Virus record (IMG/VR): IMGVR_UViG_3300036792_000267
Location: 64,001 to 128,000 of that record
Direction: 5' to 3' (one strand)
Source: a virus
DNA length: 64,000 bases
The position numbers were made by a program, and so were the translations under genes. Below the pieces are notes generated by a model. The model saw nothing but the letters and a program-made list of their open reading frames with translations. It had not been told where the DNA came from and ran no database searches. Below, piece after piece: positions 4,459-27,200 of this stretch. The first letter of the stretch is position 1. The number at the start of each line of letters is the position of its first letter.

Positions 4459-4464
4459 GGGTGC

Positions 4465-7646: not shown

Positions 7647-8883
7647 ATCCCTGACATCAGTCTTTTGGAGCCCGTAGTGCTCCGAGGGGTCGTTTTAAGT
7701 TGAGAAGTTTGTAACGCCAGAAACGTTGCTGCTGCTCAACCGCCTGGACCAGACCCCGTGGCCCTTCCCGTCCGCCACCTGGGACGTGGTGAAGGGATCG
7801 AGAGCGGTCGCCAAGCCGAACGTGCCCAACTCTGAGGCGCACATCATCTCCCGGCTCGGCAGGAGCCAGGAAAGCGCGAGCTTCATCTACTTGCGCGAGA
7901 AGAAGGTCTTTGAGCCGACCACGCTGCACTGGCTGCGGACGCCGGGCGAGATCGCCCGCATCAACGCCGAGCGCGCGGTGCTGAGGGAGATCAACGACCT
8001 CAACCAGCGGTTCGACAACTTCGCCGAGTGGAGCGCCTGGCAAGCGCTGGGCGGCGCGATCCAGTACAACTACGGCGACGTCCAGGCCCTGGTGGACTAC
8101 AAGTTCCCGCGCAGCCACTTCGTCACCCCGGCCACGCCGTGGGTCACTAACACCGCGCTCGGCTACTACACCACCGGCGGCGCCACCGCGGCCGGCGCGG
8201 GAACCAACAGCGGCCAGCCGGGCCAGCCGACCACCCTGGGCCAGGCCCAGACCTCGCTGACCGCGGCCGGCGGCACCATCACCTACGCGACCCCGGTGTC
8301 GATCATCGAAGACGTGCGGTCGTGGAAGCGGCTGCTGGCCGTGCACGGCCGGGTGCCGGCGAAGGAAGTTTTCGCCACCAGCGTCACCATGGCCGGCCTG
8401 ATGGAAGCGTGGGTGTCCGCCACGCAGGCGTCTACCGTGTCGATCCCGGCGACCATGATGAGCGACCGGATGAAGGACGAATTTTACTCGACCGGCATCA
8501 TGACCGGCTTCATGGGCCTCGTCTGGACCACGGTGGAGCAGGTCTTCGAGTCCGACCTCGGCAACCTGACCTTCTTCGTGCCGGATGGCATGATCTACCT
8601 GGGCAACTACACCGACCAGCGGCCAGTGGAGGTCCTGGTCGGCCCGACTGCCGACGACGAGGCCCCCGAAGGTTTTACCGGAAAATATGCCAAGACCTGG
8701 AAGGAGAAGGACCCGTCCGCTCGTCAGTACCTGTTGGAGTGGCACATGCTCCCGATCATCACCAGGCCTGAGCAGATGCTGGTAGCCACCAACGTCATCT
8801 CTGCGGGCGGCAGCGTCACCGTCCCGGCCGGCTACTACAACGGCGGGGCCGGCACTGGCGGAAGCAACGCGCCGGTCGACTAG
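7647..8883 (+). CDS. major capsid protein (lambda gpE-like), interrupted by a 7-nt coding gap at 7695-7701
   Basis: GGAGGTG RBS then (ATC)PDISLLEPVVLRGVV, resuming in +1 frame EKFVTPETLLLLNRL; C-terminal KTWKEKDPSARQYLLEWHMLP typical of gpE-type capsids; alternative start GTG 7638. Confidence 0.85.
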
Positions 8884-8918
8884 CCTTGGCAGCAGCTCTC
8901 GCCGGAGCTGAGTTATAA

Positions 8919-8959
8919 GCAGAACGACCCTCGGGGACATAAACCGGGGGTCGTTCTGC
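8919..8959 (+). terminator. hairpin after capsid gene
   Basis: GCAGAACGACCCTCGG / CCGGGGGTCGTTCTGC 16-bp stem. Confidence 0.7.
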
Positions 8960-9119
8960 GTCCAGGCGTAGTAGTTACCGTGCCGTGGCACGAGGCCCAC
9001 CCCCTCGGACCCGGCACTGGCGACGAGGGAGGGCCGGGAGCACCGCTGGCCATTGCCTGGGTCTTGGCAGAGCCGCTGCCGTCCCTCCCGACTCGCGGGC
9101 AGCCGCCGATTGCCCCGGC

Positions 9120-9839
9120 ATGGCAGGACTGAGCGGCGAGCAGGCCGTTATCGACGTGGTGGCCGTGTCTGAGCGGCTGTGCCCGAGCACGGTCAGCTCC
9201 AACGAAACAGCCTCAAGATTGGAACTGCCGCCCGAAGCTCCAACAGAGATTGAGGCTCCCTGCGCGCTCGGGCACCCCAACCCGCCCGGTTCCCGGTTCT
9301 GCGGGGCGTGCGGGCTCCCGGCCGGCGCGGCCATTCCGGTGCGCGGCGAGCCCGTGCAGCCTAAGCCCGCCGGCATGCTGACCCCGGCCGAATTGGCTGA
9401 GCGGGAACGCCAGCACGCGGAGGCGGTCGCCGCCGCCGCCCGGTTCGAAAACGCGCCCCAGCAGTTCGTGCCGGCTGAGGGCGAGGCCGTGCTCATTCAC
9501 TTCGTGGCCGACGGGCTGACCGCGTTCGGCAGGCAGTGGTACCGCGGCCAGGAGCTGGCGATCGGCCCGGACCACCCGCGCTGGCCCGAGGCCCGGGGGT
9601 GGGTCACCCTGGACAAGTACGGGCAGATCGATCGATGGGGAGAGCAGAAGTTCGACTTCGGCCCGTGGCCCGGCCGCAAGAGCTACACCGATGCGGCGGG
9701 GTCGTTTGAGCAGCTGCGCAGCACTGACGCGGCGGGCAACAAGGTCACCTTCGCCGGCCCGTCTGAAGAGCAGCTGCGCGCCGCTGACGAGGCTGAGCGC
9801 AGGCGCGGCCGGGCAGTTCCCGCTCCGGCGATGATGTGA
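9120..9839 (+). CDS. zinc-ribbon domain protein
   Basis: CALGHPNPPGSRFCGACG; CCGAT-N9-ATG 9120. Confidence 0.7.
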   Translation: MAGLSGEQAVIDVVAVSERLCPSTVSSNETASRLELPPEAPTEIEAPCALGHPNPPGSRFCGACGLPAGAAIPVRGEPVQPKPAGMLTPAELAERERQHAEAVAAAARFENAPQQFVPAEGEAVLIHFVADGLTAFGRQWYRGQELAIGPDHPRWPEARGWVTLDKYGQIDRWGEQKFDFGPWPGRKSYTDAAGSFEQLRSTDAAGNKVTFAGPSEEQLRAADEAERRRGRAVPAPAMM

Positions 9840-9845
9840 GGCACC

Positions 9846-10190
9846 GTGACGTTCCCCGTAGGGCTGACCACGATCGAGGTCACTGGCCAGAACCTCCGCG
9901 ACTTCGGCGGCGGCTCGCTGTCCGGCACCGTAATTTTCACCGCCAGCGAGCCAGTCGCCGATCCGGCCGCTGAGGTGCTGCTGTTCGGCTCGGCTGCGTC
10001 CCAGGTGGTGGACGGGGTGCTGACGCCGGTCACGATCCCGACGACTGACTGCGTGTCGCCCGCCTTCACCTACACCATCTCGATGAAGCTGGACGAGCCC
10101 GACGCCAGCCCGTCGCCGTGGGCCGGGGTGTCCATCCCGCACACGCTGGGCGCGAGCGTCGACCTGGCCCAGCTGCTGGTGTCTGCATGA
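9846..10190 (+). CDS. hypothetical virion protein
   Basis: beta-rich 114 aa ORF in head-tail region. Confidence 0.6.
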   Translation: MTFPVGLTTIEVTGQNLRDFGGGSLSGTVIFTASEPVADPAAEVLLFGSAASQVVDGVLTPVTIPTTDCVSPAFTYTISMKLDEPDASPSPWAGVSIPHTLGASVDLAQLLVSA

Positions 10191-10765
10191 CCTGGCCCGT
10201 GCCCACCCCGGCGGAGCTGGCGAAGTACACCGGCCGGCCGCTGACCAGCTACACGAACTACGTCAACTCGGCGCTGCTGCAGGCGACCATGATGTTCACC
10301 ATCCTGGCCGAGCGGGGCGCCGACGACTACGCCGGGATGCAGCCAGACTTCCAGCAGCTCGCCAACATGGGCGTCATGGCGATGGCCGACTACCTGTACC
10401 TGCGCTGGCCTTACCAGCAGGTGATTGCCAGCCCGCTGCAGTCCGAGAACATCGGGTCTTACGAGTACAGCAAGCCGGTCGCTGAGCAGGCGCGCAACGC
10501 GCAGGCCATAGAGGTCACCGCCGAGCGCACCGGCGTGGACATGTTCGACCTGGCGGTGCGGCGGCTCGCCAGGCGCCAGGCGATGAACGGCGTCTTCTAC
10601 GGCCAGCTAACGGGTTTCGAGCATTACGGGCGCGACGACCTCGCCTACGTCAAGTTCGACCCGGAGGAAGGCCGCATGGTGCTTGTCGGGCCTGCAGATA
10701 GAGATCAGATTGATGTTCAATTCTTCTCAGTCTCAGCCGAGATGTTTCCAGCAGATCCATCATAA
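10187..10765 (+). CDS. head-to-tail adaptor (putative)
   Basis: ATGA overlap; SENIGSYEYS motif typical of adaptors; synteny. Confidence 0.65.
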   Translation: MTWPVPTPAELAKYTGRPLTSYTNYVNSALLQATMMFTILAERGADDYAGMQPDFQQLANMGVMAMADYLYLRWPYQQVIASPLQSENIGSYEYSKPVAEQARNAQAIEVTAERTGVDMFDLAVRRLARRQAMNGVFYGQLTGFEHYGRDDLAYVKFDPEEGRMVLVGPADRDQIDVQFFSVSAEMFPADPS

Positions 10766-10791
10766 CTAGCTGGACATGCTATTGTCGGTAC

Positions 10792-11481
10792 ATGGGGCGT
10801 GTGCCGACGAGGTTCGTTGAGGTAGGCCAGCGGTTTGGCCGGGGTACGGTCATCGACTCGGACGTGCGAGTTCCTTATGAGGCCCCGTCCGGATACAGCA
10901 AGAACTGGCGGTGCGCTCGGCTCCGGTGCGATTGTGGAACCGAGTACGTGGCCCAGATGGGCGCATTGTTCCGGGGTAAGCGCATCTCGTGCGGGTGCGC
11001 TCGGCGCAAGCAGCGCGACCCGGAGGCCGTGGCTCGACAACGCGCCACGCTTGAAGCACGGGGCAAGGTCACTGAGCATCCGCTCTACAGCACCTGGGCC
11101 AACATGATGCGGCGCTGCTACAAGGAGGCCAACGGCCAGTACCCCAACTACGGTGCGCGGGGCATCAAGGTTCATGAGTCGTGGCATGACAGTCGGACTT
11201 TCGTAGGCGACATCGATCGTCTGCTTGGCCCGCGCCCGAAGGGTTGCACGCTTGACCGGAAGGACAACGACGGCAACTACGAGCCGGGCAACGTGCAGTG
11301 GAGTACCGGCCCCGCGCAAAGCCGCAACACGCGCCGGGCGCTGACAGGCTCGGTCCGCTACCGGGGCAAGGGCCGGTGGGGGTTCCGCTTGAGTGCAGGC
11401 GGCTACTTTTCTGAGGCGGAAGCTTTGGCTGCCCAACGGCTAGCTATTGAGGCGCTGACCGAAGCCGGAGTGCTCCGTTAG
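10792..11481 (+). CDS. HNH homing endonuclease
   Basis: RCDCG...SCGC...YSTWANMMRRC...YGARGI...TLDRKDNDGNYEPGNVQW; TGcTATTGT 6 nt before ATG (leaderless). Confidence 0.9.
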   Translation: MGRVPTRFVEVGQRFGRGTVIDSDVRVPYEAPSGYSKNWRCARLRCDCGTEYVAQMGALFRGKRISCGCARRKQRDPEAVARQRATLEARGKVTEHPLYSTWANMMRRCYKEANGQYPNYGARGIKVHESWHDSRTFVGDIDRLLGPRPKGCTLDRKDNDGNYEPGNVQWSTGPAQSRNTRRALTGSVRYRGKGRWGFRLSAGGYFSEAEALAAQRLAIEALTEAGVLR

Positions 11482-11482
11482 C

Positions 11483-11515
11483 CTGTCCCCAGGTTGTGGA
11501 CAGGCTTGTGGACAA
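11483..11515. promoter_or_regulatory. three DnaA-box-like 9-mers
   Basis: CTGTCCCCA 11483, TGTGGACAG 11495, TGTGGACAA 11507 (reverse complement of actinobacterial TTGTCCACA), 3-nt spacers. Confidence 0.45.
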
Positions 11516-11539
11516 CCGGGCTGAGGCGTAACAGGGAGT

Positions 11540-11986
11540 ATGGCTGAATCCCGTCGTCGTCTGCTGGTCACCGGGTCACAGGACTGGGACGATTTCGCCA
11601 CCGTCCGGCGCGTGCTGAAGAAGCTGTGGGACTATGACCCGGATATCCTGCTGGTCAGCGGCGCGTGCCCGCGCGGGGCGGACCTGATGTGCGAGACGGT
11701 TTGGGACGAGTACCTGGGCGGCGGCGTAGAGCGCCACCCGGCGGACTGGTACCCGGACGGCCGGTACGACAACAGGGCCGGCATCCGCCGCAACGAGGAG
11801 ATGGTGCGCCTGGGCGTGTGGGGGTGCGTCGCCTTCGGGCGGTCCTGCGAGCGCGTCGCGTGCCGGGGGAAGCTCGCTGATGAGAAGTGGCCTTTCCACG
11901 TTACGCACGGCACGGAGCATTGCTCGCGCTACGCTGAGGCTCATGGCATTCCGGTGAAGAGGTTCACTCCGATCCTGGCGGTATGA
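11540..11986 (+). CDS. SLOG-family (DUF2493/YspA-like) protein
   Basis: LLVTGSQDW...LVSGACPRGAD...HPADW...AGIRRNEEMV...GT. Confidence 0.8.
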   Translation: MAESRRRLLVTGSQDWDDFATVRRVLKKLWDYDPDILLVSGACPRGADLMCETVWDEYLGGGVERHPADWYPDGRYDNRAGIRRNEEMVRLGVWGCVAFGRSCERVACRGKLADEKWPFHVTHGTEHCSRYAEAHGIPVKRFTPILAV

Positions 11987-12132
11987 ATGGTCCGGTGCAC
12001 GAGCGCGTTACGATTCAGGACGTCTGGGCCTTTATTGCCCCTGCAGGTTGGGCTACCCAGTGGTACTGGCCAGAGGGGGTTCACGGCAAGGTGTGGAACT
12101 TCTTTCACGGGCGCGGCTGGCAGGTGGTGTGA
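11983..12132 (+). CDS. small Trp-rich protein (49 aa, not in ORF track)
   Basis: CCGAT-N9-ATG 11983; MNGPVHERVTIQDVWAFIAPAGWATQWYW...; TGATG coupling to next gene. Confidence 0.55.
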   Translation: MNGPVHERVTIQDVWAFIAPAGWATQWYWPEGVHGKVWNFFHGRGWQVV

Positions 12133-12272
12133 TGGTTCACCGGGGAATCCCCGAGCACGGCTCCTGGTGGCGGCTCGGCCGCGACATGCTGTGGCTGGCC
12201 GTTCTCGCCGGGGCCGGCTCCGTGGTGTTCATCCTCGGTGACCTGGTGATCTACGGCCGGGTGAACTGGTGA
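12132..12272 (+). CDS. small membrane protein
   Basis: one hydrophobic segment; coupled to both neighbours. Confidence 0.55.
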   Translation: MVHRGIPEHGSWWRLGRDMLWLAVLAGAGSVVFILGDLVIYGRVNW

Positions 12273-12583
12273 CCAGGTACAGGGACCCGCTCCCGCCGGG
12301 AGTGCGGCAGAAGGTCGCGAAGATGTCGCTGGTGCTGCAGTACGCCGACGGCTATATCGCGGTCGTGCAGGGCGAGGACCTGTACGCCACGGCGACATTC
12401 CCGCTTGCCCTCGGGCCTGACGCCGAGGTGCAGGTCATCCGTGAGCTGTCTCTGGTGCCCTCGGTCTTCGAGACCAGGAAGCTGGTGCTGGAGGTCGACC
12501 TGGTGCCCGGCAAGCCGAGCCGTCCTGCCCTGCGCATGCAGTGCGCCTTTACCGACGAGGACCCGCCGATTCCCAGTGCGTGA
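12269..12583 (+). CDS. hypothetical protein
   Basis: GTGA overlaps on both sides. Confidence 0.6.
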   Translation: MTRYRDPLPPGVRQKVAKMSLVLQYADGYIAVVQGEDLYATATFPLALGPDAEVQVIRELSLVPSVFETRKLVLEVDLVPGKPSRPALRMQCAFTDEDPPIPSA

Positions 12584-13074
12584 CCACGCCGCAGCCTTAC
12601 CAGCCGTTCGCGCCTGGCCAGGGCATGCGGATCTTCTACAGCAGCACCTGCCAGGTGCTCCGCTCCAACTCCTCGCTCGACGTCGGCGGCGGCATGTCGT
12701 TCACCTGGGACCCGGTAACCGACGTGGTGGACCGTTACCTGAACACGCCGGGGATGCTGCAGTGCCGCCTTGACCTGACCTTCCTGCGGCCGGGCAAGGA
12801 CCAGCCCGCGCCCATCGTGGCCGGCCGCGCCCCGGACCGGGTGGGCGTCTGCTACTTCGACCTGGTGCCCGACGCCGAGGGCGCGTCGCAGGTGCGGGCC
12901 GGCGACCGCCTGCGGTGCGTGAGCGGCCCCATCTTCGGCACGTTCGAGATCCGGCTCATCCCCGACGTCGCGCAGTCCCTCATCGGCGCGCACCACATCG
13001 AGGTACAGGTTGTCGAGGTCAGCCAGATGCTCAAGCCGGGCACCTCGCCGACGCCCTTCGGGTCACCGGAGTGA
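12580..13074 (+). CDS. head-to-tail stopper (putative)
   Basis: VRAGDRL...HHIEVQVVE motif; CCGAT-N9-GTG. Confidence 0.65.
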   Translation: MTTPQPYQPFAPGQGMRIFYSSTCQVLRSNSSLDVGGGMSFTWDPVTDVVDRYLNTPGMLQCRLDLTFLRPGKDQPAPIVAGRAPDRVGVCYFDLVPDAEGASQVRAGDRLRCVSGPIFGTFEIRLIPDVAQSLIGAHHIEVQVVEVSQMLKPGTSPTPFGSPE

Positions 13075-13085
13075 GGAGGATCGAC

Positions 13086-13241
13086 ATGCGCTGGGGCGTG
13101 CACTGGGGGAAGCGCAAGGAGAACGGCGTCTGGCGGGCGTCAGTGCCACGTCGGCGCTTCATGTTTCGCGGGCACGACTCGCTGTTCATCGCGGCAGGCT
13201 GCTGGCGGCTGCGCCTGATGAAGCCGGGGTGGTGCCCGTGA
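13086..13241 (+). CDS. small basic hypothetical protein
   Basis: GAGGAGG RBS before ATG 13086. Confidence 0.5.
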   Translation: MRWGVHWGKRKENGVWRASVPRRRFMFRGHDSLFIAAGCWRLRLMKPGWCP

Positions 13242-13594
13242 GCGCGCCGTGGTGGCACCCGGAAGCCAACCCGCTGCGCGACATTCAAGAGGTTGCGCGT
13301 GAGCTGGAGCGGCAGTACGCGTCTGGTTTTAGTGCGCCGCAGCCTATGGGACTCCCTGAGCCCGTAGTGGTGGTAGCACCGCGCTTCAAGGAGGCGCTGA
13401 CGTGGGCGTGCCGGGAAAGGCTGGCGCGGAGGCGGTGGCACTGGGCCCGGCTGCCGGAGGAGCTGTACGGCCTGCTCGGCGGCACCGTCGTACTGGTCAA
13501 CAGCTCCAGGCTGGCGGGCGACCCGGGTGAGTGGTTCTCGGTGATGCAGGTCCTCGGCCGGACGGGCACGGTTATCCGGCAGGAAGTTACCTGA
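13238..13594 (+). CDS. hypothetical protein
   Basis: GTGA overlap; TGATG coupling downstream. Confidence 0.5.
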   Translation: MSAPWWHPEANPLRDIQEVARELERQYASGFSAPQPMGLPEPVVVVAPRFKEALTWACRERLARRRWHWARLPEELYGLLGGTVVLVNSSRLAGDPGEWFSVMQVLGRTGTVIRQEVT

Positions 13595-14019
13595 TGGCTG
13601 AGTATTTCGTGGTCTACCTGAACGGCGCGGGCGACGAGCTGGACCGGCTGGCCCGCGGCCCCGACGCGCAGACCATCGCGCGCATGGAGGCGGCGCTCAT
13701 GCTGGGCTACGCCATCACCGAGGGGCGGGTGCACGTCATCACCGGCGACCTGCTCGCCTCCGGCCACCCGGCCTCCAGCTTCGACAAGTACACCTGGTCA
13801 GGCGAGATCGACTACGACCGCTACCCGGGCATCTTCGAGCTGGCGCGCGGCGACGTCGCGACGAAGTACCACCCCTATCCGGGCAGGCACTACTTCTTCG
13901 ACCCGGGCGGGCACGAGTTCGAGAAGGGCGTGCGGCAGGCGTTCTGGGACTGGGTGACGGACGACAAGGGCGGCAAGGCTCCCGACGGCGGCCTGCCGTG
14001 GAAGTCCGGCGGCGATTAG
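13594..14019 (+). CDS. neck/tail completion protein (HK97 gp10-like)
   Basis: VHVITGDLLASG motif; synteny. Confidence 0.6.
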   Translation: MAEYFVVYLNGAGDELDRLARGPDAQTIARMEAALMLGYAITEGRVHVITGDLLASGHPASSFDKYTWSGEIDYDRYPGIFELARGDVATKYHPYPGRHYFFDPGGHEFEKGVRQAFWDWVTDDKGGKAPDGGLPWKSGGD

Positions 14020-14025
14020 CTGTGC

Positions 14026-14547
14026 ATGGATGACGTGGCGACCGGGAGTGTCAAGTACCTGTCCGGGTTCGCCGACGTCACCGCGCTGCTCGGCTCCTAC
14101 CCGCTGACCGACCCGCCCGGGTTCGCGGGCAAGCCCTGGCTGTTCAGCGACATGAACCAGGGCGTGCTCAAAGTCATGGAGGGCTCCTCGGCCGCGGCAG
14201 TGGTGTGCGCCGACTTCGGCGGCTGGGAGGTGCCGGTGCCCGGGTCCAGCGCCCGGTACCGGCGGCTGCGCGTGGATATCTGGATTGACCCGCAGCGCGA
14301 CGCCGGCATGAACGTCGCCGAGTCCTCCTCCGTGACCGCCAACCGCGGCCTGGCGGTGTTCAACGCCCTTCAGTACCGCCTCCACCGCCTTGACCCGGAC
14401 GCGGTGGTGTGGGGCGACCTGGTGACGGTTGGCTGCCAGCTGCTCACTGAGCCCGTCTTCCAGCCCATCGCCGACGGCGACTACCTGCTGCGCGGGACCG
14501 CCTACTACGGCGTGGAGTACAGCGGCTGGAGCGACGCGGCCGAATAG
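14026..14547 (+). CDS. tail terminator (putative)
   Basis: synteny; RLRVDIWID; GCGAT-N9-ATG. Confidence 0.55.
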   Translation: MDDVATGSVKYLSGFADVTALLGSYPLTDPPGFAGKPWLFSDMNQGVLKVMEGSSAAAVVCADFGGWEVPVPGSSARYRRLRVDIWIDPQRDAGMNVAESSSVTANRGLAVFNALQYRLHRLDPDAVVWGDLVTVGCQLLTEPVFQPIADGDYLLRGTAYYGVEYSGWSDAAE

Positions 14548-14616
14548 TTACCCAGGGTCGCGTCATTACCGCCGGCGCGGCGCGTGCAGTCACCGTAACC
14601 GCGAGGGGGAGGGCCC

Positions 14617-15834: not shown

Positions 15835-16097
15835 CCGCCGTGGAGGAGATCGAGGTCCGCTGCCCGGTCCCGGTGCAATTGCCGAACGGGCACAGCCTGC
15901 CCGGCAGGCTGCTGATGAAGCTGCTGGTACGGGGCGAGTTCCCGTCGTTCGTGCACCCGGACAACCTTATTGAGCTGGCTTGCGACGAGTGCCGGGTGCA
16001 GTTGCGCAAGCGGGGTGTCAGCGTGAACCGGGTGCTGCACAGGTACGACCTCGCCGGGCAGCTTGTGGAGACACTGACTGACGGCGAGGTGATTTGA
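15831..16097 (+). CDS. hypothetical protein (CxxC)
   Basis: GTGA overlap with glycosyltransferase. Confidence 0.55.
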   Translation: MTAVEEIEVRCPVPVQLPNGHSLPGRLLMKLLVRGEFPSFVHPDNLIELACDECRVQLRKRGVSVNRVLHRYDLAGQLVETLTDGEVI

Positions 16098-16125
16098 ATG
16101 TAGCCTCACGACCGGAGGCGATTTA

Positions 16126-17069: not shown

Positions 17070-17078
17070 TTGGGCGGG

Positions 17079-17309: not shown

Positions 17310-17315
17310 GCGGGC

Positions 17316-17906: not shown

Positions 17907-17986
17907 CGGTTTCCCCTGCGGCCTCCGTGATCTTGGTGTTACCGTCGCGGAACCCGCACCTGACGCCAGCATGCCCGGGAGATGCC

Positions 17987-18535: not shown

Positions 18536-18554
18536 CGTTTGCTAAACTGGAGGC

Positions 18555-19088: not shown

Positions 19089-19152
19089 GCACCCTCCGAT
19101 TGGAAGGGCGAGCCAGGAGTTTGGCTCGCCCTTCACCATGTCTGGAGGCAGC

Positions 19153-19950: not shown

Positions 19951-19953
19951 GTC

Positions 19954-20481
19954 GTGAACGCGACCGCCATCGCCATCCTGGGCGTCGTGGGCGCGCTGCT
20001 GGGCGGCGGTGGCGCAGTCCTGGGCGTCCTCTACGCCAGGGCGCGCAACGCACGAGACGACCTGAAGGCGGAGGTCAAGGCGGCGGAGGCTGCCAAGGCC
20101 GAGCGGGACGCGACGCACGTACTCGCGCAGTCGGCGTATGCCCTGGCCGAAGCGGGACGCACGGAAGCCCGCGGGCTTCGCTCGGAGGTGACAGCTCAAG
20201 ACTCCCGGCTGGCCATCTTGGAATCCAAGATGGACGTCTTTTGGAGAAATGTGGCTTTCGACGTGAGCAAGATTCTGCACAGCCCGCACCCGGGGTGGGA
20301 AGAGCTGGATGCCCTGCTGGAGAAGTTCCAGGCTCGCGACATCACTGACCTGGAAATGGCCGACTTGGAGACCCAGCTGCGGGACATGGTTGAGGGCCGG
20401 TGGGTGCCGACCGAGGTAACGCGCGCGGACCAGGTGGCCGCGAGCCTGCTACTGCGGGCGATTGAGCAGACGAGGGTGTGA
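19954..20481 (+). CDS. membrane-anchored coiled-coil protein (holin-like)
   Basis: N-terminal TM helix plus coiled coil in lysis cassette. Confidence 0.55.
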   Translation: MNATAIAILGVVGALLGGGGAVLGVLYARARNARDDLKAEVKAAEAAKAERDATHVLAQSAYALAEAGRTEARGLRSEVTAQDSRLAILESKMDVFWRNVAFDVSKILHSPHPGWEELDALLEKFQARDITDLEMADLETQLRDMVEGRWVPTEVTRADQVAASLLLRAIEQTRV

Positions 20482-20484
20482 GTG

Positions 20485-20823
20485 ATGCCTGAAGCTGCCG
20501 CGCACAAGCTGCAAGACGTGGTTGACGACATAACCGGGTACAAGCGCCGGACCAGGTGGTGGAGGTGGGGCACGGCCCTGGTCGCCGTGGCCGCCGTCCT
20601 GCTGTACGTCCGGGTGCACCAGAGCCAGATAGACAACTGCGTAGCCGGCAACCAGACCAAGGTCCAGCAGGCGCAGTTGTGGGACACGCTGTTCGACCTG
20701 GCGGCCAAGGGGAGCACCGGGCCGCCGAGCGCGCAGACGCAGAAGCTGACGTCGGAGTTCCTGGGCGACGTCAAGGCTACTTACGCGCCTGTCGACTGCG
20801 CCGCGCGCTACCCGTTCTGGTGA
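20485..20823 (+). CDS. membrane protein (lysis cassette)
   Basis: single TM helix, two Cys in external domain. Confidence 0.55.
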   Translation: MPEAAAHKLQDVVDDITGYKRRTRWWRWGTALVAVAAVLLYVRVHQSQIDNCVAGNQTKVQQAQLWDTLFDLAAKGSTGPPSAQTQKLTSEFLGDVKATYAPVDCAARYPFW

Positions 20824-20857
20824 CAGCGCTCTGTTGTCCTTTCCGCGTATTAAAGGT

Positions 20858-21427
20858 ATGGGCAAAAGACTCGACATACCCGTAGGCACGAGATTCGGGA
20901 AGCTGGAAGTCATCGGAGAGGGCGAGCCGAAGGCGTACGGGAAGGACCGGCCGAGCCGCACACTGCGGTGCCGGTGCGAATGCGGGAACGTGGTGGACGT
21001 TACCGTGCGCAAGTTGGTGCACTTGGGCCAGATCTCGTGTAGTCGGTCGTGCGGTAACACCAAGCACGGGCTCGCGCGGCGCAGTACCAGGGACCCTATC
21101 TATAACTGCTGGCAGAGCATCTGGGCACGGACGAACAACCCGAAGGCGACCGGCTACAAGTACTGGGGCGGGCGCGGCATCAGGATGCACGAGCCCTGGA
21201 AAGACCCGGCAGTGTTCAAGGCCGAGGTGGAGGCCGAGATCGGCTTGCGCCCGAGCCAGGACATGAGCGTGGAGCGCATCGACGTTAACGGGCACTACGT
21301 GCCAGGGAACATTATGTGGCTGCCTAAGTCGAAGCAGCCCCTGAGCCGACGTCCTGTCTACAACAGCACGGACGTGGAGGCGATGCTGGCCGCGCACCAC
21401 TGTGCGTGCTGCTCGCGCACCCCTTAA
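20858..21427 (+). CDS. HNH homing endonuclease
   Basis: GTRFGKL...CRCECG...WGGRGI...SVERIDVNGHYVPGNIMW. Confidence 0.9.
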   Translation: MGKRLDIPVGTRFGKLEVIGEGEPKAYGKDRPSRTLRCRCECGNVVDVTVRKLVHLGQISCSRSCGNTKHGLARRSTRDPIYNCWQSIWARTNNPKATGYKYWGGRGIRMHEPWKDPAVFKAEVEAEIGLRPSQDMSVERIDVNGHYVPGNIMWLPKSKQPLSRRPVYNSTDVEAMLAAHHCACCSRTP

Positions 21428-21484
21428 AAGCACAACCGATTAAACCTCCCGAAGGCGCAACCGGCCATCGGGAGGTCTGTCGTT

Positions 21485-22144
21485 ATGCCGACTGCCAGCA
21501 ACACTTATGCCGGCACCCCGTTCGAGGGCTTTTCGCTGAGCCACGCCGCGATTCTCAACGGCTCTACCGGAGCTGAAGGTGCCACTGTCTACGGCGTGCG
21601 GAACGGCACGATCTCGACGGACCAGGGCAACTTCGAAAACACCGGCGACGACGTCGTGTTGTCCGAACACTTCTGGATAAATTTTGCGAATGTGACCATT
21701 GAAGAGGGTTATATCCCCTTCAGCACGATCGCCTACATCACCGGCACGACGGTCACCAGCTCCGGCGCAGCGGGCGCGGACTACTACGCCATCCCGCTGT
21801 GGACCCTGGCAAGCATGAACCAGGTGACCCAGCCGCTGGCTATCCGCGTGCCGTCCAAGGACGCCGGCGGACAGATCCGGACGCTGGACTTCATCCTGTA
21901 CCGCGTACAGTTCCAGCCGTTCAACTTCACCGGCCCGAGCTACAAGACGGGCCTGAGCTGCAGCATCGCGGGCCGCGCGCTGTTCAGCACTGTCAACGAG
22001 GTCGGCGCGTCGCTGCCTGCCGCTTACGGCGGCACCTCCGGCTCGGCCGGCACCGCCATCGGCCGCCTCGTGTCCCTGCCGGGCACTGAGACGGGCGCGT
22101 TCGTGCCGGAGCCGTTCGGGGCCGGCGGCGGGACGGTGGTCTGA
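21485..22144 (+). CDS. major tail (tube) protein
   Basis: 219 aa beta-rich; ENTGDD; upstream of chaperones and tape measure; GGGAGGT RBS. Confidence 0.75.
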   Translation: MPTASNTYAGTPFEGFSLSHAAILNGSTGAEGATVYGVRNGTISTDQGNFENTGDDVVLSEHFWINFANVTIEEGYIPFSTIAYITGTTVTSSGAAGADYYAIPLWTLASMNQVTQPLAIRVPSKDAGGQIRTLDFILYRVQFQPFNFTGPSYKTGLSCSIAGRALFSTVNEVGASLPAAYGGTSGSAGTAIGRLVSLPGTETGAFVPEPFGAGGGTVV

Positions 22145-22146
22145 CC

Positions 22147-22359
22147 GTGGCAGGCAGGCACCGCAGGAAGGGCGAGGACAAGGCCGCCGAGCCCCTGCCG
22201 GGCACGGCGGCCATGGGCCAGGGCCAGCCAGAGGCCGGGGTGGAAGCCCCGGACGAGGACATGCCCGAGCAGCCGGACAACGTGGTGACCGGCGGCGAGG
22301 CTCTGGAAGAGCAGCAGCGCAACCCCGACCTGGACGACAACAGCGGAGCCCGCCCGTAG
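22147..22359 (+). CDS. small acidic hypothetical protein
   Basis: follows tail tube gene. Confidence 0.55.
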   Translation: MAGRHRRKGEDKAAEPLPGTAAMGQGQPEAGVEAPDEDMPEQPDNVVTGGEALEEQQRNPDLDDNSGARP

Positions 22360-22493
22360 CTGCGTAAGCTGGCTGTTGGCTGAGGAAGGCCGAGAACGGC
22401 GCGCTTGGGCACAGGGGAGACCCTGAAGCGCGCCGTTCGCATGTCCGCCGATTGTCCCGGCATCAGCCCCGAGAGTCCCTGAGAGGACCCGTT

Positions 22494-23174
22494 ATGCCGG
22501 ATAACAGTGAACTGGATCGTATCGATCCACAGCCGGAGACGTGCAAGCTGTCCACCGGCTTCGAGGTCGACATCGTGCGGATGCGCACCCGCCAGTTCTT
22601 CCGCTTGCTGCGCGTGCTGACCCACGGGGCAGGCCCCGCGCTCACCCAGTCCGGGCTCGACTTCGCGGCCGGAGGCGAGGAGTTCACCCAGAAGCTGCTC
22701 ATGCTCGTGGTGATGTCCATCCCCGACGCCGAGCAGGAGGCCATCGGCTTCCTGGCGTCAATGTGCCGGCCGTCCGGCATCACGGACAAGGCTGCCTCCC
22801 AGCTGACCAAGCAGGAAAACGAGGCCAACCAGGCGCTGTGGACCCGGTTCAACGAGGAGCTGCACAACCCTGACCTGGAGGACACCCTCGACCTGGTTGA
22901 GATTATCGTCCGGCAGGAGTCGCCTGAGCTGCAGGCCCTGGGGAAAAAACTCCAGCGGACGTTCAAGATCTTCCAGGCGACGGGCCAGGACAGGGAGGCC
23001 CCGGAGCCGGAGGCGAGCCCGCAGGAGATCAACTCGCCGGAGCGTTCGCCTCAGCTTTCGACGTCCTCAGCCACGAGTACGGGTGGACCGACGAGTACGT
23101 CCTCGACCTCCCGGTCTGCCGGCTCCGGCAGTGCCTCGAAGCGGCGGGCGCACGCCGGAAGCGAGAGCAGCTAA
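22494..23174 (+). CDS. tail assembly chaperone (gpG-like)
   Basis: between tube and tape measure; S/T-rich tail overlapping a -1 frame ORF. Confidence 0.7.
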   Translation: MPDNSELDRIDPQPETCKLSTGFEVDIVRMRTRQFFRLLRVLTHGAGPALTQSGLDFAAGGEEFTQKLLMLVVMSIPDAEQEAIGFLASMCRPSGITDKAASQLTKQENEANQALWTRFNEELHNPDLEDTLDLVEIIVRQESPELQALGKKLQRTFKIFQATGQDREAPEPEASPQEINSPERSPQLSTSSATSTGGPTSTSSTSRSAGSGSASKRRAHAGSESS

Positions 23175-23506
23175 GCCGCCTGCGGCTGGCCGAATGGCAG
23201 GTGAAGATGGTGTGCCAGTTCATCGGCGCGCAGGCCATGGTGGACACCAAGGCGCACGGCGGCAAGAACCCGCTGGTGGAGCTGGCCGCATCCATCGACA
23301 TCTTCGGCGGCAAGTCCCCCGAGGAGCAGGAGCTTGACCGCATTCGCGGGCCGAAGGTGGCCGACTCGGTTGAGGACGACCCGCGGTTCGGCAAGGTGGC
23401 CGCCGACCCCGACGCCGGCGTGGAGGCCGCGAATGCGAGCGGTTCGTATGAGGCTTTCATGGCCATGATGGGCGGACCGCCGCCTATGCCGGGCCGCGGG
23501 GGGTGA
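22940..23506 (+). CDS. tail assembly chaperone extension (gpT-like, -1 frame)
   Basis: -1 frame open from GGGGAAAAAA at 22940 through FDVLSHEYGWTDEYVLDLP to TGA 23506; exact shift site uncertain. Confidence 0.6.
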   Translation, partial: GEKTPADVQDLPGDGPGQGGPGAGGEPAGDQLAGAFASAFDVLSHEYGWTDEYVLDLPVCRLRQCLEAAGARRKREQLSRLRLAEWQVKMVCQFIGAQAMVDTKAHGGKNPLVELAASIDIFGGKSPEEQELDRIRGPKVADSVEDDPRFGKVAADPDAGVEAANASGSYEAFMAMMGGPPPMPGRGG

Positions 23507-23528
23507 GGGCGTGGGCGTAGTAGTCAGC

Positions 23529-24230
23529 ATGGTACGTAATTCATCAATGCTGTCCGACGAGTCTTGGCTGCGCGAGCGCTACCTCGTTGACGAACTGTCC
23601 ACCACCGCCATTGCGGCGCTGGCCAACTGCTCTCAGGCCACGGTGTGCAACCGGCTGGCCGGGTACGGAATCCCGCGGCGTCCCCGAGGTCGCTTTACGC
23701 AGAGCCGGATCGACGCTGACGGCCGAGAGTGCACGGCTTGCGGTGACTACAAAGCGTGGAACGAGTACTCGCCTAGCAAGCCGACGCAGCCAGGCGGCCG
23801 GTACTCCGTCTGCAAGGTCTGCTGGAACGGCACGCGCGGTGGCGGCCCCGGTAACCGGAATGGCGAGTACCGTGCGTGGGCACTCAAGCGCATGGGCATC
23901 ACGCAAGCCGAGTACGACTGGCTGCTAGCCCTGCAGAAGGGCGTGTGCGCTCTCCATGGTGGCCCGGAGACTAGGAAGGGTGCGCTGTACCTTTCCGTCG
24001 ACCACGACCACAACTGCTGTCCGCCGGTAAAGGTCGGGCAGACCCGGTGCTGCAAGAAGTGCATCCGCGGCCTGCTCTGCCACGACTGCAACCACATGGT
24101 CGGCCTAGCTGAGAAGCTAGGTCAGGCGTGGCGGTTCCCTGATTACCTGGGCTCGCGCCCCTTCATGGGGAAGGGGGTGGTGCTCATGACGCCTTATTCT
24201 GAGCCTCTGAGCCACAGTTGTGGCTTATGA
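23529..24230 (+). CDS. endonuclease VII-like homing endonuclease with N-terminal HTH
   Basis: WLRERYL...IA...GIPRR; QKGVCALHG...LSVDHDH.CC...CIRGLLCHDCN. Confidence 0.85.
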   Translation: MVRNSSMLSDESWLRERYLVDELSTTAIAALANCSQATVCNRLAGYGIPRRPRGRFTQSRIDADGRECTACGDYKAWNEYSPSKPTQPGGRYSVCKVCWNGTRGGGPGNRNGEYRAWALKRMGITQAEYDWLLALQKGVCALHGGPETRKGALYLSVDHDHNCCPPVKVGQTRCCKKCIRGLLCHDCNHMVGLAEKLGQAWRFPDYLGSRPFMGKGVVLMTPYSEPLSHSCGL

Positions 24231-27200
24231 GGGACCAGAATACTGGTTAGATCGCTTTGGTATGTAATTTACAAGGCGATCGGTTTAACATTCAGGTGAC
24301 TTCGGCGACCTGATGCGGGACGCGGCGCAGGCTAAGGCCGCGCTGCAGGGGATGGGCGATGCGGCCAAGGCGGAGACCGCGGCCGAGGTGGCGGGCGCGA
24401 CCCAGGCCGCCGCCGCGCGCGGCAAGGGCATCACGTCCATCCAGCAGGAGACGCAGGCCCTTAACCAGCTCGCCAACGCCGCCAAGCAGACCAACGTCCA
24501 GCTGCTCTACGGCGGCCGGAATGACATGACCCAGCACCTGAGCGACCTGGCTCAGGAGCTGAACTACACCACCTTGCTCAACCGGCAGAAGTGGCTCGGC
24601 TTCTCCTCCGTCCAGCAGGCCATGTCGTACCGCCAGCAGATGTATAACCTGGCGCTGCTGGAGAACAAAGCGCACTTCGCCGGCTACCTGACCGCGGACC
24701 AGTACCTGGGCTTCCTGCAGCGCGAGACCGCCCAGACCGCGGCGCTGTCGGCCGCCATCCGCGACCGCAGCGCGGCCATCGGCGCCGAGACCCAGATGCT
24801 GCTCGCGCACGCCAACGCGCTGCAGGGCACCCACGCGACGGCAGGCAGCCTGGGCGAGGGCCTGAGCACGGTCAACGCCTACAACGTGGCGCTGGTCGGG
24901 CTGCCGGACACGGTGGTCACCAAGGCCGTCCTTGATGACAGCCAGGCGATGTCGCAGCTGGCTGCCTACCGCGCGGCGCTGACCTCGCTTCCCAACGCGG
25001 AGACCACCGACATCACCTCGGTTGCCACCCGGCTGGGCGGCGTCCCGCTGACGGGCGCGCGCCAGGCGGTGCCGGTCAGCGTCCGCCCCGAGATCGACTA
25101 CGCCGCGATCAACAAGATGCTGTCCCAGGCGGTCGCCGGGGCGCACCCGGAGGCGCTGCGCGCGCCGCTGGCCATCACCGGGTCGGGAGCGGCGGATTCC
25201 GCGCTGTCGGCCACGGCGGATTCCGCGCTGTCGGCCACGGCGGACGACGCCGGCGCGCTGTCGGCGTCCATGTCCGAGCTGAGCGACAAGGCGGCCATTT
25301 CCGCCGAGGCAATCAGCAAGTTCCAGGACTCCCTCGCGCTGGCCGCGGTCGACGCCCGCGCGCTGGAGCAGGGACTCGGGCGCCTGTCGGCCGCCGAGCA
25401 GCTGCTGTCTGAGGTTAACGCCCAGTTCGTGCCGCAGAAAGGCCGCAAGAAGGCGGCGGCTGCCGACCCGGCGCAGAACCTCGCTGACCTGTACGGGCTG
25501 CAGGACGTCGCCGGCGCGCTGCGCGAGGGCGCGATCTCCGACGCGCCGCGCGGCTACCCGCTGTCCGCCCCGGGCATGAAGATCATCCCGCCGACGCAGG
25601 CGGGAGAAGAAGACCTGTGGTCGGGGCTGTCCAAGTACATGCAGGGCGGCAAGGCCGCGGGGACTGCCACCGAGAAGGTTGCCGTCGAGGGCGGCCAGGA
25701 GGCCGAGGCGACCCTCGACAAGATCGCCGTCCAGATGGAGTGGCTGGACCATGAGGATGCCAAGCCGAAGCTAGAGCTGGAAGGCGGCCAGGAGGCGCTA
25801 GACGACGCCTACCACCTGGACGGCGTACTCGTCGGCCTGACTTACGAGCGCGCGGAGCCGGAAGTCGCCCTGCAAGGCGGAGCCGAGGCGCTGGGAGAAG
25901 TCACCGCCCTGGACGAGGGGCTGCACGAGATCCCGCACGAGACTGACACCGTCCTGGTGGTCGAGTCCTCCGGGGCCTCCAGCGAGGTCCGCGATTACAG
26001 CCGCGACATTGAGGACATCGAGCGTGAGGTGGGCACTCGCGCCGACTTCGAGGACACCGAGGCGGAGAGCGGGCTGTCGCGCTGGCTGACCGCCCTGGCT
26101 GCGGCGGTCCAGCACAAGTACGACTTCTACGCCAGCTTCAACGACGACGCGGCCAAGGCCGAGCTGGCCGGGTGGATCAGCGAGCTTGAGGCGGCACGCG
26201 CCGAGGAGAACCGCATCACCGCCGGCATGGGCGGTGCCTCCGGTGGCGGTGGCGGCGGAGGGCCGCCTGTTCCCCCTGCTGCCGCCGGCGACGCGCCCAA
26301 CCCGGATGACCGGGCGATGTGGGAGGCCGTCGCCGCCGAGATGGCCAAGGTAGACGCCCTCTTCAAGAACACCGGCCGTGACGCCGCTGCCGCCGGGGCC
26401 GCCGCGTCCAAGGCCGGCCGGGACGGCGCGCAGGCGGTCACCTCGATGGTGCTGCCGCTGACCAACGGCGCGCGCGGCTGGTTCGGCCTGCTCACCCAGG
26501 TCAACCTGTTCGGCGGCCTGCTGCCCGGCATCCTGGGCCACACCACGGCCCTGCACTTCGTCCTTGACGCGATCATCGAGACGATCGCCATCCTGCTGCC
26601 GGCCATCGTCACCATGGCAGCCGGGCTGACCGCGTTCGGCATCGCTGGCTACGACGCCGGCAAGGCGGTCTACGAGCGCCTGACGGCGATTCACACCGCG
26701 GCCGACGCCACCGGCCAGTCCATCCCGCCGCTGACCGGGAACCTGGAGAAGCTGCACGACACGGTGCGCCCGCAGGTCTGGCAGTTGTATGGCGACGCCA
26801 TCACCGTCGCGGGGGCGAAGTCCGGGCTCTTCAACCAGCTGGCCATCCAGACCGGGAACGTGGTCGACCGGCTGGCCGCGCGGCTGACGGTGGACCTGGT
26901 GCAGGGTGGCCAGGGGCTGAAGACGTTCCTGTCGGTCGGCGCGGAGAACCTGGCCAAGCTCGGCACCATCTTCGACAACCTCGGCAAGGCCCTGATGGCG
27001 TTCATCAAGGTCACCGAGGACACCCACATTGACCAGATTTTCCTGGCCATCTTCGTGGCGCTGTCCCAGTTCCTGGTGCTCATCACCAAGCTGCCCACCC
27101 CGTTGCTCGCCGCCGTGGTCGCGCTGCACGCGTTCTGGCTGTGGGGCGGCCTGCTGGCCACCGTGGTCCTGCAGATGCTCAACCCGCTGCGCTCGCTGGC

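Follow-up and report, generated by a model that had tools for sequence, protein, structure and literature searches.

TTA-led gaps in the capsid and tape measure genes of an uncultured soil phage: probable ribosome hopping beside homing-endonuclease genes

The reading frames of the major capsid and tape measure genes in an uncultured phage from soil (GC 68%; clade genome size ~150 kb) are broken near the gene starts by short inserts led by TTA, which ribosomes most likely hop over. The window analyzed here comprises 64,000 nt (positions 64,001 to 128,000 of IMG/VR record IMGVR_UViG_3300036792_000267), with its features listed in Table 1. Recoding across three gaps must occur for these two essential proteins to be produced, and UUA-triggered translational bypassing, like that proposed for the phiHau3 phage terminase, would be the mechanism of best fit, short of proof. 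We place a probability of about two in three on the combined reading, in which hopping is opened by UUA and the gaps are parts of homing-endonuclease cassettes.

Table 1. Split genes, gaps, and endonuclease genes in the window.
Feature	Position (nt)	Strand	Remarks
Endonuclease VII-family (HNH-like) free-standing homing endonuclease gene	6763–7470	-	PF02945, E 1.8e-7
Major capsid gene, segment 1	7638–7694	+	GTG start (or ATC 7647) to take-off GTT 7692–7694; encodes (MSP)IPDISLLEPVVLRGVV; aligns to Magritte and IMG/VR capsid N-termini
Capsid coding gap, 7 nt	7695–7701	+	TTA 7695–7697, A 7698, landing codon GTT 7699–7701
Major capsid gene, segment 2	7702–8883	+	GAG 7702 onward; EKFVTPETLLLL... 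to stop; lambda gpE-type fold family
Endonuclease VII-family homing endonuclease gene	23511–24230	+	PF02945, E 6e-12; stop overlaps tape measure codons 3–4
Tape measure, segment 1	24220–24246	+	GTG start to take-off TGG 24244; MAYEGPEYW; matches uninterrupted N-termini of L086, L088, L091, and L093
Tape measure gap A, 14 nt	24247–24260	+	TTA 24247, GATCGCTT, landing codon TGG 24258–24260; missing in five relatives
Tape measure, segment 2	24261–24284	+	YVIYKAIG; last codon is take-off GGT 24282
Tape measure gap B, 13 nt	24285–24297	+	TTA 24285, ACATTCA, landing codon GGT 24295–24297; missing in five relatives
Tape measure, segment 3	24298–32589	+	DFGDLMRDAAQAK... to stop; from ORF listing and alignment to relatives

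The first-pass annotation had described one site in the capsid gene and two in the tape measure gene of the form codon X, TTA, spacer, codon X, and the letters are as it gave them. The gene starts were corrected to GTG 7638, possibly ATC 7647, for the capsid gene and to GTG 24220, overlapping the end of an endonuclease ORF, for the tape measure gene. Past the capsid take-off codon, frame 0 encodes L and S before a TGA at 7701, and the +1 frame is closed by a TAA; in the tape measure gene, frame 0 terminates at TAA 24265 after gap A and at TGA 24297 after gap B. The accompanying claim that decoding TTA leads to an early stop holds in the window but fails in four relatives (L006, L007, L089, and L090). 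Skipping the gaps gives ...LRGVV/EKFVTPE in the capsid protein and MAYEGPEYW/YVIYKAIG/DFGDLMRD in a joined tape measure protein of 2780 aa, and these junctions yield sequence conserved in homologues, bearing out the claim that hopping restores sensible proteins.

The capsid ORF matched PF03864 (E 1e-22), with the profile entered only at position 32 when read from 7726, and is 47.6% identical to the major capsid protein of the Microbacterium phage Magritte. The start of the Magritte protein (PEISLLQPTVLRGVV-ERFTAPETM) corresponds to frame 0 of the window (PDISLLEPVVLRGVV) followed by its +1 frame (EKFVTPETL), the window being 7 nt longer. GVVEKF is uninterrupted in about 70 of the 79 IMG/VR capsid relatives, and insert variants at this site read TTA-G-GTC (L006), TTA-CCGG-GTT (L052 and L055), and TTA-GCGG-GTC (L081). 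Among the insert-carrying genomes, segment 1 showed 93 synonymous versus 8 non-synonymous codon differences (summed over pairwise comparisons); between the window and L081, 10 of 15 codons differ and every change is silent. A Shine-Dalgarno-like GAGGGG lies upstream of the capsid take-off codon, and the 5′ stem-loop predicted ahead of it is no stronger than that in insert-free relatives.

The tape measure gene was recognized by its size and by its place after an overlapping ORF pair (22452–23337), and the first 1000 aa read from 24313 matched no Pfam family. Five relatives open without interruption as MAYEGPEYW(Y/N)VIYKA(I/V)GDF..., exactly the junction peptide that had been predicted, and uninterrupted capsid and tape measure relatives lack precisely the 7, 14, and 13 nt expected. 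Segment 1 shows only synonymous changes among the window, L082, and L087. The window, L082, and L083 share a 14-nt gap A, while that of L087 is 13 nt long (TTA GATCGCC TGG), so the frame within it is not conserved; a single TGG-to-TGG hop would cover both lengths, whereas frameshifting would need opposite directions. Gap A also pairs with 24272–24281 in a predicted hairpin, and variants in the gap B region read TTA-ACATCCA-GGC (L087), GGA-TTA-GCTC-GGT (L084), and GGT-TTA-CCCA-GGT (L085).

Counted over this phage and its relatives, inserts occur at six codon positions spread over three genes, none more than about 20 codons from the start; they amount to at least 11 alleles of apparently independent origin, every one opened by an in-frame TTA. 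The landing codon is identical to the take-off codon or Y-synonymous at 13 of the 16 listed sites, such that the same tRNA could read both (GAC for GUY, GCC for GGY), and a +1 slip at the TTA runs into TAA or TAG at 12 of 16. The proposal of UUA bypassing with matched codons stands insofar as TTA is invariant, matching is the rule, and the sites are built identically to those of phiHau3, while hopping as the means of recoding is a step that we infer from sequence alone. A matched landing codon is missing in two relatives, namely L007 (GGT...CGC) and L090 (a 4-nt TTAG). Gap length is 3n+1 at 15 of the 16 listed sites and in both phiHau3 gaps, which counts against a pure hop, as this does not predict such lengths. 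The almost exclusively synonymous change in the broken-off 5′ segments shows that they are translated and joined.

In-frame TTA is nearly absent from the genome, as previously noted by manual scan: at most 11 occur in 39,687 called codons (~48 expected from positional composition; 104 and 136 in the other two frames), most of them frame or start miscalls. The phage encodes 37 tRNAs, including those that would hop (Val-GAC, Gly-GCC, Trp-CCA, and His-GUG), tRNA-Leu with CAA, GAG, and CAG anticodons but not UAA, and tRNAs for the other rare A-ending codons AUA and AGA.

In the proposed mechanism, peptidyl-tRNA would sit on the take-off codon (GUU, UGG, or GGU) as UUA, nearly unused by the phage and unread by its own tRNAs, enters the A site. 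During the resulting pause, the peptidyl-tRNA would unpair, the mRNA would slide 7–14 nt, and the same tRNA would re-pair with the identical landing codon, with decoding restarting one codon on to give the protein made by gap-free relatives. Such bypassing would have to be efficient to supply hundreds of capsid protein copies, which, with the low product levels published for phiHau3, counts against hopping.

Exactly three PF02945 genes occur genome-wide, one directly upstream of each of three TTA-gapped genes, the third of which encodes a PD-(D/E)XK nuclease outside the window; relatives of this nuclease gene have neither endonuclease nor gap. The ~800-nt block around the capsid-side endonuclease (6697–7496) and the tape measure-side block (23497–24257) are both missing in relatives without the endonuclease, the former having no counterpart in L017. 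Every tape measure locus with an endonuclease gene or remnant is gapped, including that of L087, which keeps its gaps beside a remnant, and all five gap-free loci lack the endonuclease. In L045, the capsid gene has an endonuclease VII gene upstream of it and is interrupted at the gap position (GGCGTGGT^TGAGAAG) by an ORF-less group I intron. Insert-bearing capsids are scattered across the capsid tree, and L052 and L053 are 95–100% identical in DNA outside a ~560-nt foreign patch comprising an endonuclease remnant, leader, first codons, and insert, past which identity is lowered in a gradient over ~450 nt. The link has exceptions: no insert accompanies the 72%-identical endonuclease of L075 or several more distant endonuclease VII genes located ahead of capsid genes, and inserts occur without an endonuclease in L006, L084, L085, and apparently L089, the upstream ORFs of which contained none.

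Together, the endonuclease adjacency, the L045 intron, and the recombined patch indicate homing-endonuclease cassettes. An endonuclease VII-family gene would have inserted just upstream of each target gene, and the gap slightly downstream would split the cleavage target of the endonuclease, protecting the carrier genome as an intron would and as T4 gene 60 is shielded from MobA by its 50-nt gap. Essential genes would keep only inserts that ribosomes can hop, which would explain why the hungriest codon comes first and a copy of the take-off codon last.

The first-pass annotation had instead read the gaps as an evolved switch that would confine head and tail protein synthesis to times when bldA-type tRNA-Leu(UAA) is scarce, so that the phage senses host development. 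The near-exclusive use of UUA at the gaps and the phage tRNA set described above favor this idea, already in print for the terminase of phiHau3 (PMC10732093), and gaps in head, tail, and nuclease genes would coordinate control. However, the host of the nearest cultured relative is Microbacterium rather than a sporulating streptomycete, close relatives manage without gaps, and five further U34 tRNAs are missing, so the absence of Leu-UAA is not unique. Moreover, gap presence at each locus goes with the endonuclease genes and not with phage lineage, and the gaps lie close to the start, by the endonuclease insertion point, as homing but not regulation predicts. We consider a switch unlikely as the reason for the gaps. 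The observations point to their being parts of homing-endonuclease cassettes, an arrangement that the first-pass annotation had not raised at this point, as the simpler reason, under which low UUA decoding is a requirement of the mechanism and need not reflect an evolved sensor, although a switch can coexist with a cassette origin.

Still less likely, in our view, is a +1-type recoding, in which the ribosome takes four bases at once (UUA and the base after it), or shifts +1 after decoding UUA, and translates the remaining 0–3 gap codons, so that the proteins would have 1–4 extra residues. The 3n+1 lengths favor such a step, the leftover gap codons include no stop, and L090 and L007, poorly explained by hopping, would fit. 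It cannot, however, cross the 14-nt gap A of the window, L082, and L083, and the 1-nt indel within gap A between functional relatives shows the internal frame to be unconstrained. The matched landing codons at most sites would be left without reason, and ARAGORN gave every one of the 37 phage tRNAs a three-base anticodon, with none flagged as four-base. In phiHau3, moreover, an in-gap +1-frame stop did not reduce recoding, and the junction peptide has no extra residue.

That the gaps are never passed, being assembly errors, defective genomes, or dead pieces upstream of starts at TTG 7726 and ATG 24313, is very improbable. The data are metagenome assemblies throughout and ORFs with start codons exist 3′ of the gaps, but the inserts, or variants of them at identical or neighboring codons, recur in contigs from other samples, the capsid N-arm is conserved family-wide, no ribosome-binding site is recognizable before TTG 7726 while GGAGGAGG stands before segment 1, and neither pseudogenes nor downstream starts are compatible with the purifying selection on the segments that precede and separate the gaps. 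Least probable of all is gap removal from the RNA (tiny introns, editing, or polymerase realignment) followed by ordinary translation: the L045 intron means that RNA-level removal does occur at the capsid position within the clade, but we know of no mechanism that splices out 4–14 nt, an Rfam search of the window gave no match, and an invariant in-frame TTA with matched codons is a feature of translation, not of splicing.

Bypassing opened by UUA over the gaps, the reading that we prefer, has its closest counterpart in the terminase genes of phiHau3, StrepC.1, and an S. catenulae prophage, where it crosses inserts of 7–10 nt (Smith et al. 2013; Antonov et al. 2023, PMC10732093). The phiHau3 sites (GGC-TTA-CTCC-GGT and TCT-TTA-ACGG-TCC) share the arrangement of an in-frame sense codon, TTA, short spacer, and same or Y-synonymous codon in a new frame, and bypassing there is supported by mass spectrometry of a UAA variant in E. 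coli and a +1-stop mutant, with published product levels being low (PMC10732093). Both cases involve high-GC actinophages that avoid TTA elsewhere and have insert-free homologues. In contrast, the genes affected here, in a separate, uncultured clade of ~150-kb phages, are those of the major capsid, tape measure, and PD-(D/E)XK nuclease, the gaps span 4–14 nt with two in series within 17 codons, all near the start, and many natural alleles exist. Endonuclease VII genes lie alongside, whereas the phiHau3 terminase has no adjacent endonuclease (nearest HNH gene 1.4 kb upstream) and homing is not mentioned in PMC10732093.

In RF2 (prfB)-type +1 frameshifting, a slow A-site codon is likewise involved, and a Shine-Dalgarno-like run lies upstream of some TTA sites; however, these sites have no slippery P-site codon, their +1 frame is mostly shut, and one gap needs a +2/-1 shift. 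What has reportedly been called 'collaborative homing' by Zeng, Bonocora and Shub in 2009 pairs a free-standing homing endonuclease with an endonuclease-less group I intron, much as in L045, but the interruption in the window would be removed in translation and not by splicing. The programmed bypass elements (byps) of Magnusiomyces capitatus mitochondria, reported by Lang et al. 2014, are also numerous and mobile, break the frames of essential genes, and combine matched take-off and landing codons with an A-site codon that is poorly decoded, but they measure 27–55 nt, belong to a eukaryotic organelle, and are reportedly not linked to endonuclease genes.

The T4 gene 60 phage system combines a 50-nt bypass with a MobA homing endonuclease cassette (Huang 1988; Bonocora et al. 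2011; Manning and Atkins 2022 preprint), the gap stopping MobA self-cleavage and remaining after endonuclease loss, as reported in Bonocora 2011. Here too, a free-standing HNH-superfamily endonuclease adjoins an essential gene with a matched-codon untranslated gap, the distribution is patchy and recombinational, and the gap outlasts endonuclease decay (a remnant in L087, none in L084 and L085). By contrast, the gaps are 4–14 nt, UUA stands in place of UAG (some gene 60 relatives also have a hungry sense codon in place of the stop), and the endonuclease does not split its target gene into two ORFs. We found no conserved take-off stem-loop or in-gap Shine-Dalgarno at the TTA gaps, and the long nascent-peptide signal of gene 60 is impossible here, as only 9–21 residues have been made at take-off. 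The endonuclease carries a Pfam endonuclease VII domain, any homology to MobA being hypothetical, and cleavage protection is a putative function. TTA gaps adjoining homing-endonuclease genes connect the two known kinds of phage ribosome hopping.

The genome from which the window derives is 151,377 bp long with 68% GC and direct terminal repeats, and the window forms its middle 64 kb. The gene content of the window is that of the structural module of a tailed phage, comprising a Mu-type portal, a Mu-I-like protease/scaffold, a lambda gpD-like decoration protein, a major capsid protein of the lambda gpE family, and a 2,758-codon ORF at the tape measure position. The nearest, and sole, cultured relative found was the Microbacterium phage Magritte (47.6% capsid identity). 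The tape measure protein had no match in the phage collection, bacterial assemblies gave no clue to the host, and no known RNA families or tRNAs were detected within the window.

The first-pass annotation had noted one gap in the capsid gene and two in the tape measure gene, each opening with TTA and flanked by a repeated codon, and predicted that homologues would lack exactly these nucleotides. Both points were confirmed. Re-reading the sequence gave the same bases in the two genes, and about 70 of 79 IMG/VR capsid loci read GVVEKF unbroken. The capsid N-terminus of the Magritte phage reads PEISLLQPTVLRGVV-ERFTAPETMTML; in the window, PDISLLEPVVLRGVV is followed in one frame by L, S and a stop, and EKFVTPETLLLL lies in the +1 frame with a stop before it, leaving exactly 7 nt extra in the window compared to Magritte. 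With 7726, the first start listed, taken as the beginning of the capsid ORF, the Pfam match sets in only at model position 32, in keeping with a missing N-terminus. Likewise, five tape measure relatives begin MAYEGPEYW(Y/N)VIYKA(I/V)GDFGDLMRD uninterrupted, and the window gene, read from the GTG at 24220 with 14 nt and then 13 nt skipped, yields the N-terminal sequence of these relatives. Both tape measure gaps are common to the window and two relatives (L082 and L083); in L087, gap A takes a 13-nt form and the landing codon of gap B (the codon at which reading would resume) is GGC. A third gapped gene, encoding a PD-(D/E)XK nuclease, lies outside the window, where CAT TTA G CAT separates its first 21 codons from the remainder; the related loci L095 and L096 read ...SWSR(I/L)(R/K)(N/L)H DECPAKG unbroken and have no endonuclease gene. 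A decayed duplicate of the nuclease 5′ end (DNGTLRLSWSP...), with its own TTA at genome 39228, is located upstream of the inserted endonuclease gene.

Gapped genes, junctions and associated features (bare coordinates refer to the window, "genome" to the whole record; L numbers denote IMG/VR relative loci)
Feature	Location	Junction or strand	Remarks
Capsid gap	7695-7701	GTT TTA A GTT	7 nt; take-off codon 7692-7694
Tape measure gap A	24247-24260	TGG to TGG	14 nt
Tape measure gap B	24285-24297	GGT to GGT	13 nt
Capsid, L006		GTT TTA G GTC	
Capsid, L052 and L055		GTT TTA CCGG GTT	
Capsid, L081		GTT TTA GCGG GTC	
Capsid, L007		GGT TTA ACCCCGC	One codon earlier
Tape measure, L084		GGA TTA GCTC GGT	Site B only
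Tape measure, L085		GGT TTA CCCA GGT	Site B only
Tape measure, L089		GGT TTA ACCT GGC	Three codons further on
Tape measure, L090		Bare TTAG after AAG	
PD-(D/E)XK nuclease gene and decayed duplicate of its 5′ end	Genome 39138-39269 + 39752-40589 (L094:3138-3269 + 3752-4589)		Outside window; TTA gap at genome 39815
Endonuclease VII-domain ORF	6763..7470	Minus strand	Before capsid gene
Endonuclease VII-domain ORF	23511..24230		Just before tape measure gene
Third endonuclease VII gene	Genome 39220..39792		Directly upstream of PD-(D/E)XK nuclease gene
Endonuclease VII gene, L045	L045:1732-2556	Minus strand	Upstream of capsid gene
37-tRNA gene cluster	Genome 56197-62595		Just before window; most codon families, including rare AUA and AGA

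An in-frame TTA opens every insert, i.e., the 16 tabulated sites (three in the window and 13 in relatives) and the nuclease site, which was counted separately; the same holds for the published sites in the phiHau3 phage. Together, these sites fall at six codon positions in three genes and amount to 11 or more alleles that appear independent of one another. At 13 of the 16 sites, the landing codon equals the take-off codon or is its Y-ending synonym, both being read by the same tRNA, and all three window pairs are identical (GTT/GTT, TGG/TGG, and GGT/GGT); the exceptions are L084 (GGA to GGT) and the unmatched L007 and L090. The near absence of in-frame TTA, claimed earlier from a manual scan, held genome-wide, with at most 11 cases in 39,687 codons against ~48 expected, most of the 11 being miscalls, compared to 104 and 136 in the other two frames. 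Two TTAs counted in that scan (4014 and 4194) are probably not codons, as they lie in a weakly coding stretch whose containing ORF scores negative. This stretch (3873-4230, ~350 nt) holds six TTA triplets and sits between the ORF 3633..3866 and a likely small gene from ~4232. The tRNA cluster carries leucine tRNAs including CAA, GAG, and CAG, and is without Leu-UAA, Leu-UAG, Val-UAC, Ala-UGC, and Ser-UGA; it does supply Val-GAC, Gly-GCC, Trp-CCA, and His-GUG, the tRNAs that would hop.

Judged on these sequence features, the most likely recoding mechanism is UUA-triggered hungry-codon bypassing, given the TTA openers, the matched landings, a blocked +1 frame, an indel inside gap A, the avoidance of TTA, the tRNA set, and the likeness to the phiHau3 sites. 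An alternative is a four-base reading of UUAN. This would predict gap lengths of 3n+1, as seen at 15 of the 16 sites and in phiHau3 (4, 7, 10 or 13 nt), a rule that hopping does not predict, and would also accommodate L090 and L007; however, it accounts for neither the 14-nt gap nor the matching of landing codons. Under a +1 model, the junction peptides would be GVVLVEK and AIGLHSGDFGDLMR. Classical programmed +1 or -1 frameshifting, which calls for a slippery site and an open new frame, does not fit the sites: a plain +1 slip at the TTA runs into TAA or TAG at 12 of the 16 sites, and gap A would need -1 in the window and +1 in L087, where a single kind of hop, from TGG to TGG, would suffice for the two. 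That these forms of gap A (14 nt and 13 nt) differ by a 1-nt indel also indicates that the gap's interior is not decoded.

Two further explanations would deny recoding altogether. The upstream pieces could be dead remnants, with the real starts at 7726 and 24313, but this is ruled out by the near-purely synonymous change within them. Among insert-bearing genomes, differences in the 15 codons before the capsid gap are nearly all synonymous (93 synonymous versus 8 non-synonymous, summed over pairs), with the window and L081 differing at 10 of 15 codons without a single protein change, and the two short tape measure segments show 59 synonymous versus 14 non-synonymous codon differences over pairs. 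The segments are therefore parts of functional proteins and the two downstream positions are not real starts; to judge by this substitution pattern, the separated 5′ pieces of the capsid and tape measure genes must be translated. Assembly error is excluded on comparison of the contigs, because those bearing inserts derive from separate samples and are not identical in sequence.

The whole genome was also scanned for other matched TTA gaps, with 25 coding codons required to either side, a design blind to sites close to gene starts. Nothing convincing emerged; the best match (genome 15469, GCG...GCG) proved to be a normal junction of two genes overlapping in TTATG. At this position and at genome 14762 and 43411, all outside the window, an in-frame TTA overlaps the ATG of the next gene, resembling TGATG stop-start overlaps; in the latter two cases, the upstream reading frame continues well past the TTA. 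The capsid start also varies: in the window (7638-7649) and in six relatives (L003, L006, L011, L013, L016, and L050), ATT or ATC stands where most relatives have ATG or GTG, and in this subset a GTG always lies three codons upstream, only ~2 nt past a GGAGG run. Upstream of the capsid gene, a GC-rich hairpin (GCAGGCCGGGC...GTCGCTG, window 7500-7560) is kept in nearly all capsid relatives, with or without the endonuclease gene, and may be a terminator or processing site. In the tape measure gene, a 10-bp hairpin is predicted at 24250-24281, in which gap A (GAUCGCUUUG) pairs with the codons immediately preceding take-off B (CAAGGCGAUC). It is kept in three sequences, with one pair being U.G in the window, U-A in L082, and C-G in L087, and could help drive the second hop, three sequences being too few for proof.

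The endonuclease VII domain is typical of actinophage homing endonucleases. The whole genome contains exactly three genes with this domain (PF02945), and all three adjoin the three gapped genes. Compared to endonuclease-free relatives, the window carries foreign blocks at 6697-7496 and 23497-24257. All tape measure loci with an endonuclease gene (the window, L082, L083, and L090) or its remnant (L087) are gapped, and all five loci lacking gaps are without the endonuclease; L084 and L085 are gapped without an endonuclease, as apparently is L089, in whose upstream ORFs none was found. Among capsid relatives the association is imperfect, with L075 carrying a 72%-identical endonuclease and no insert. 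Insert-bearing capsids are scattered over the capsid tree (a quick maximum-likelihood tree from which L081 was left out, its sequence being too short), each amid insert-free relatives. L052 (insert) and L053 (none) have virtually identical capsid proteins, and their flanking DNA is 95-100% identical. They differ by a ~560-nt unrelated patch covering the insert together with an endonuclease remnant, the leader, and the first codons; beyond it, identity is lowered along a gradient that reaches ~450 nt into the capsid gene. Homing with co-conversion leaves such a pattern.

One capsid relative, L045 (IMGVR_UViG_3300047160_003855), carries a ~260 nt interruption at the position of the TTA gap (within L045:2668-2990). 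The interruption matches the group I intron model RF00028 over its full length (1-253; 40.6 bits, E 2e-8), but the score falls short of the 50 bits that Rfam sets for gathering. It is ORF-less; exon 1 ends ...GGC GTG GT, i.e., in U, the putative intron ends in G, exon 2 starts T GAG AAG, and joining the exons gives GVVEK. Within alignment ambiguity, this putative intron lies at the very phosphodiester bond where the TTA gaps are found, so the capsid junction occurs in three states: uninterrupted, with a putative intron, or with a mini-gap.

An 'inverted bldA switch', in which virions are made only when UUA is poorly decoded, was proposed for the window by the first-pass annotation and had already been published as a hypothesis for phiHau3 (PMC10732093). 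In our view, the gaps can be explained without regulation, since the link to endonuclease genes holds locus by locus, and all gaps lie beside endonuclease insertion points; if bypassing depends on low UUA decoding, the mechanism itself would account for this. Putative endonuclease-cassette immunity, in which the gap would keep the cassette's own endonuclease from cutting, is the more likely biological meaning of the gaps, over developmental sensing. In a further reading, which we rate at a probability of about 0.5, soil actinophages would hold a second, independently evolved class of homing-endonuclease cassette, in which a 4-14 nt hungry-codon 'translational intron' does the job of a group I intron, both alternating at the same capsid nucleotide. 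Since synthesis of the major capsid protein would rely on hopping, hopping would have to be efficient under this cassette reading, with UUA near-unassigned during infection.

Programmed ribosome hopping is among the rarest of recoding events. The clade adds putative hopping sites in the most abundant virion protein, the tape measure protein, and a nuclease, and its more than 12 natural alleles (gap lengths of 4, 7, 10, 13, and 14 nt, synonymous landing codons, and two serial hops) offer a ready-made mutant set for deriving hopping rules. Gene callers will truncate such essential genes; annotation of high-GC phages should look near endonuclease genes for an in-frame codon that is followed by TTA and a short spacer and then repeated.

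The case for UUA-triggered hopping has so far come from three terminase genes with partial experimental support only (PMC10732093). The phiHau3 terminase gaps (GGC TTA CTCC GGT and TCT TTA ACGG TCC) equal those of the window in site structure; a junction peptide without extra residues was reported for these gaps in E. coli with UAA replacing UUA, and a +1-stop mutant was reported to be unaffected (PMC10732093). The gaps described here belong with this type of site, in new genes and a new phage clade. Unlike the gapped genes here, the phiHau3 terminase has no adjacent endonuclease gene, so the cassette link, which is not described in the literature for UUA gaps, does not carry over directly to that published example.

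The layout of gaps and endonucleases parallels that of T4 gene 60/mobA, where a gap of 50 nt protects against cutting by the cassette's own MobA and persists once the endonuclease is lost (Bonocora 2011); the cassette has been described as unique, and some of its relatives use a hungry codon instead of a stop. The gaps here are shorter (4-14 nt) and open with a sense codon, whereas that of gene 60 opens with a stop codon after take-off. Only 9-21 residues are made before take-off, so the nascent-peptide signal of gene 60 cannot apply. No distinctive take-off stem-loop of the gene 60 type was found at the capsid site, nor was a conserved Shine-Dalgarno seen within the gaps; a 5′ stem-loop ending at the capsid take-off codon was rejected as a specific signal because insert-free relatives fold equally well. 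Given these differences, the element is not a sequence homologue of the T4 gene 60/mobA family; by analogy, it would work like a member of it. The clade also offers a connection between the two known phage hopping systems, in that the short UUA gaps look like the gene 60 gap's answer, i.e., surviving a homing endonuclease without an intron.
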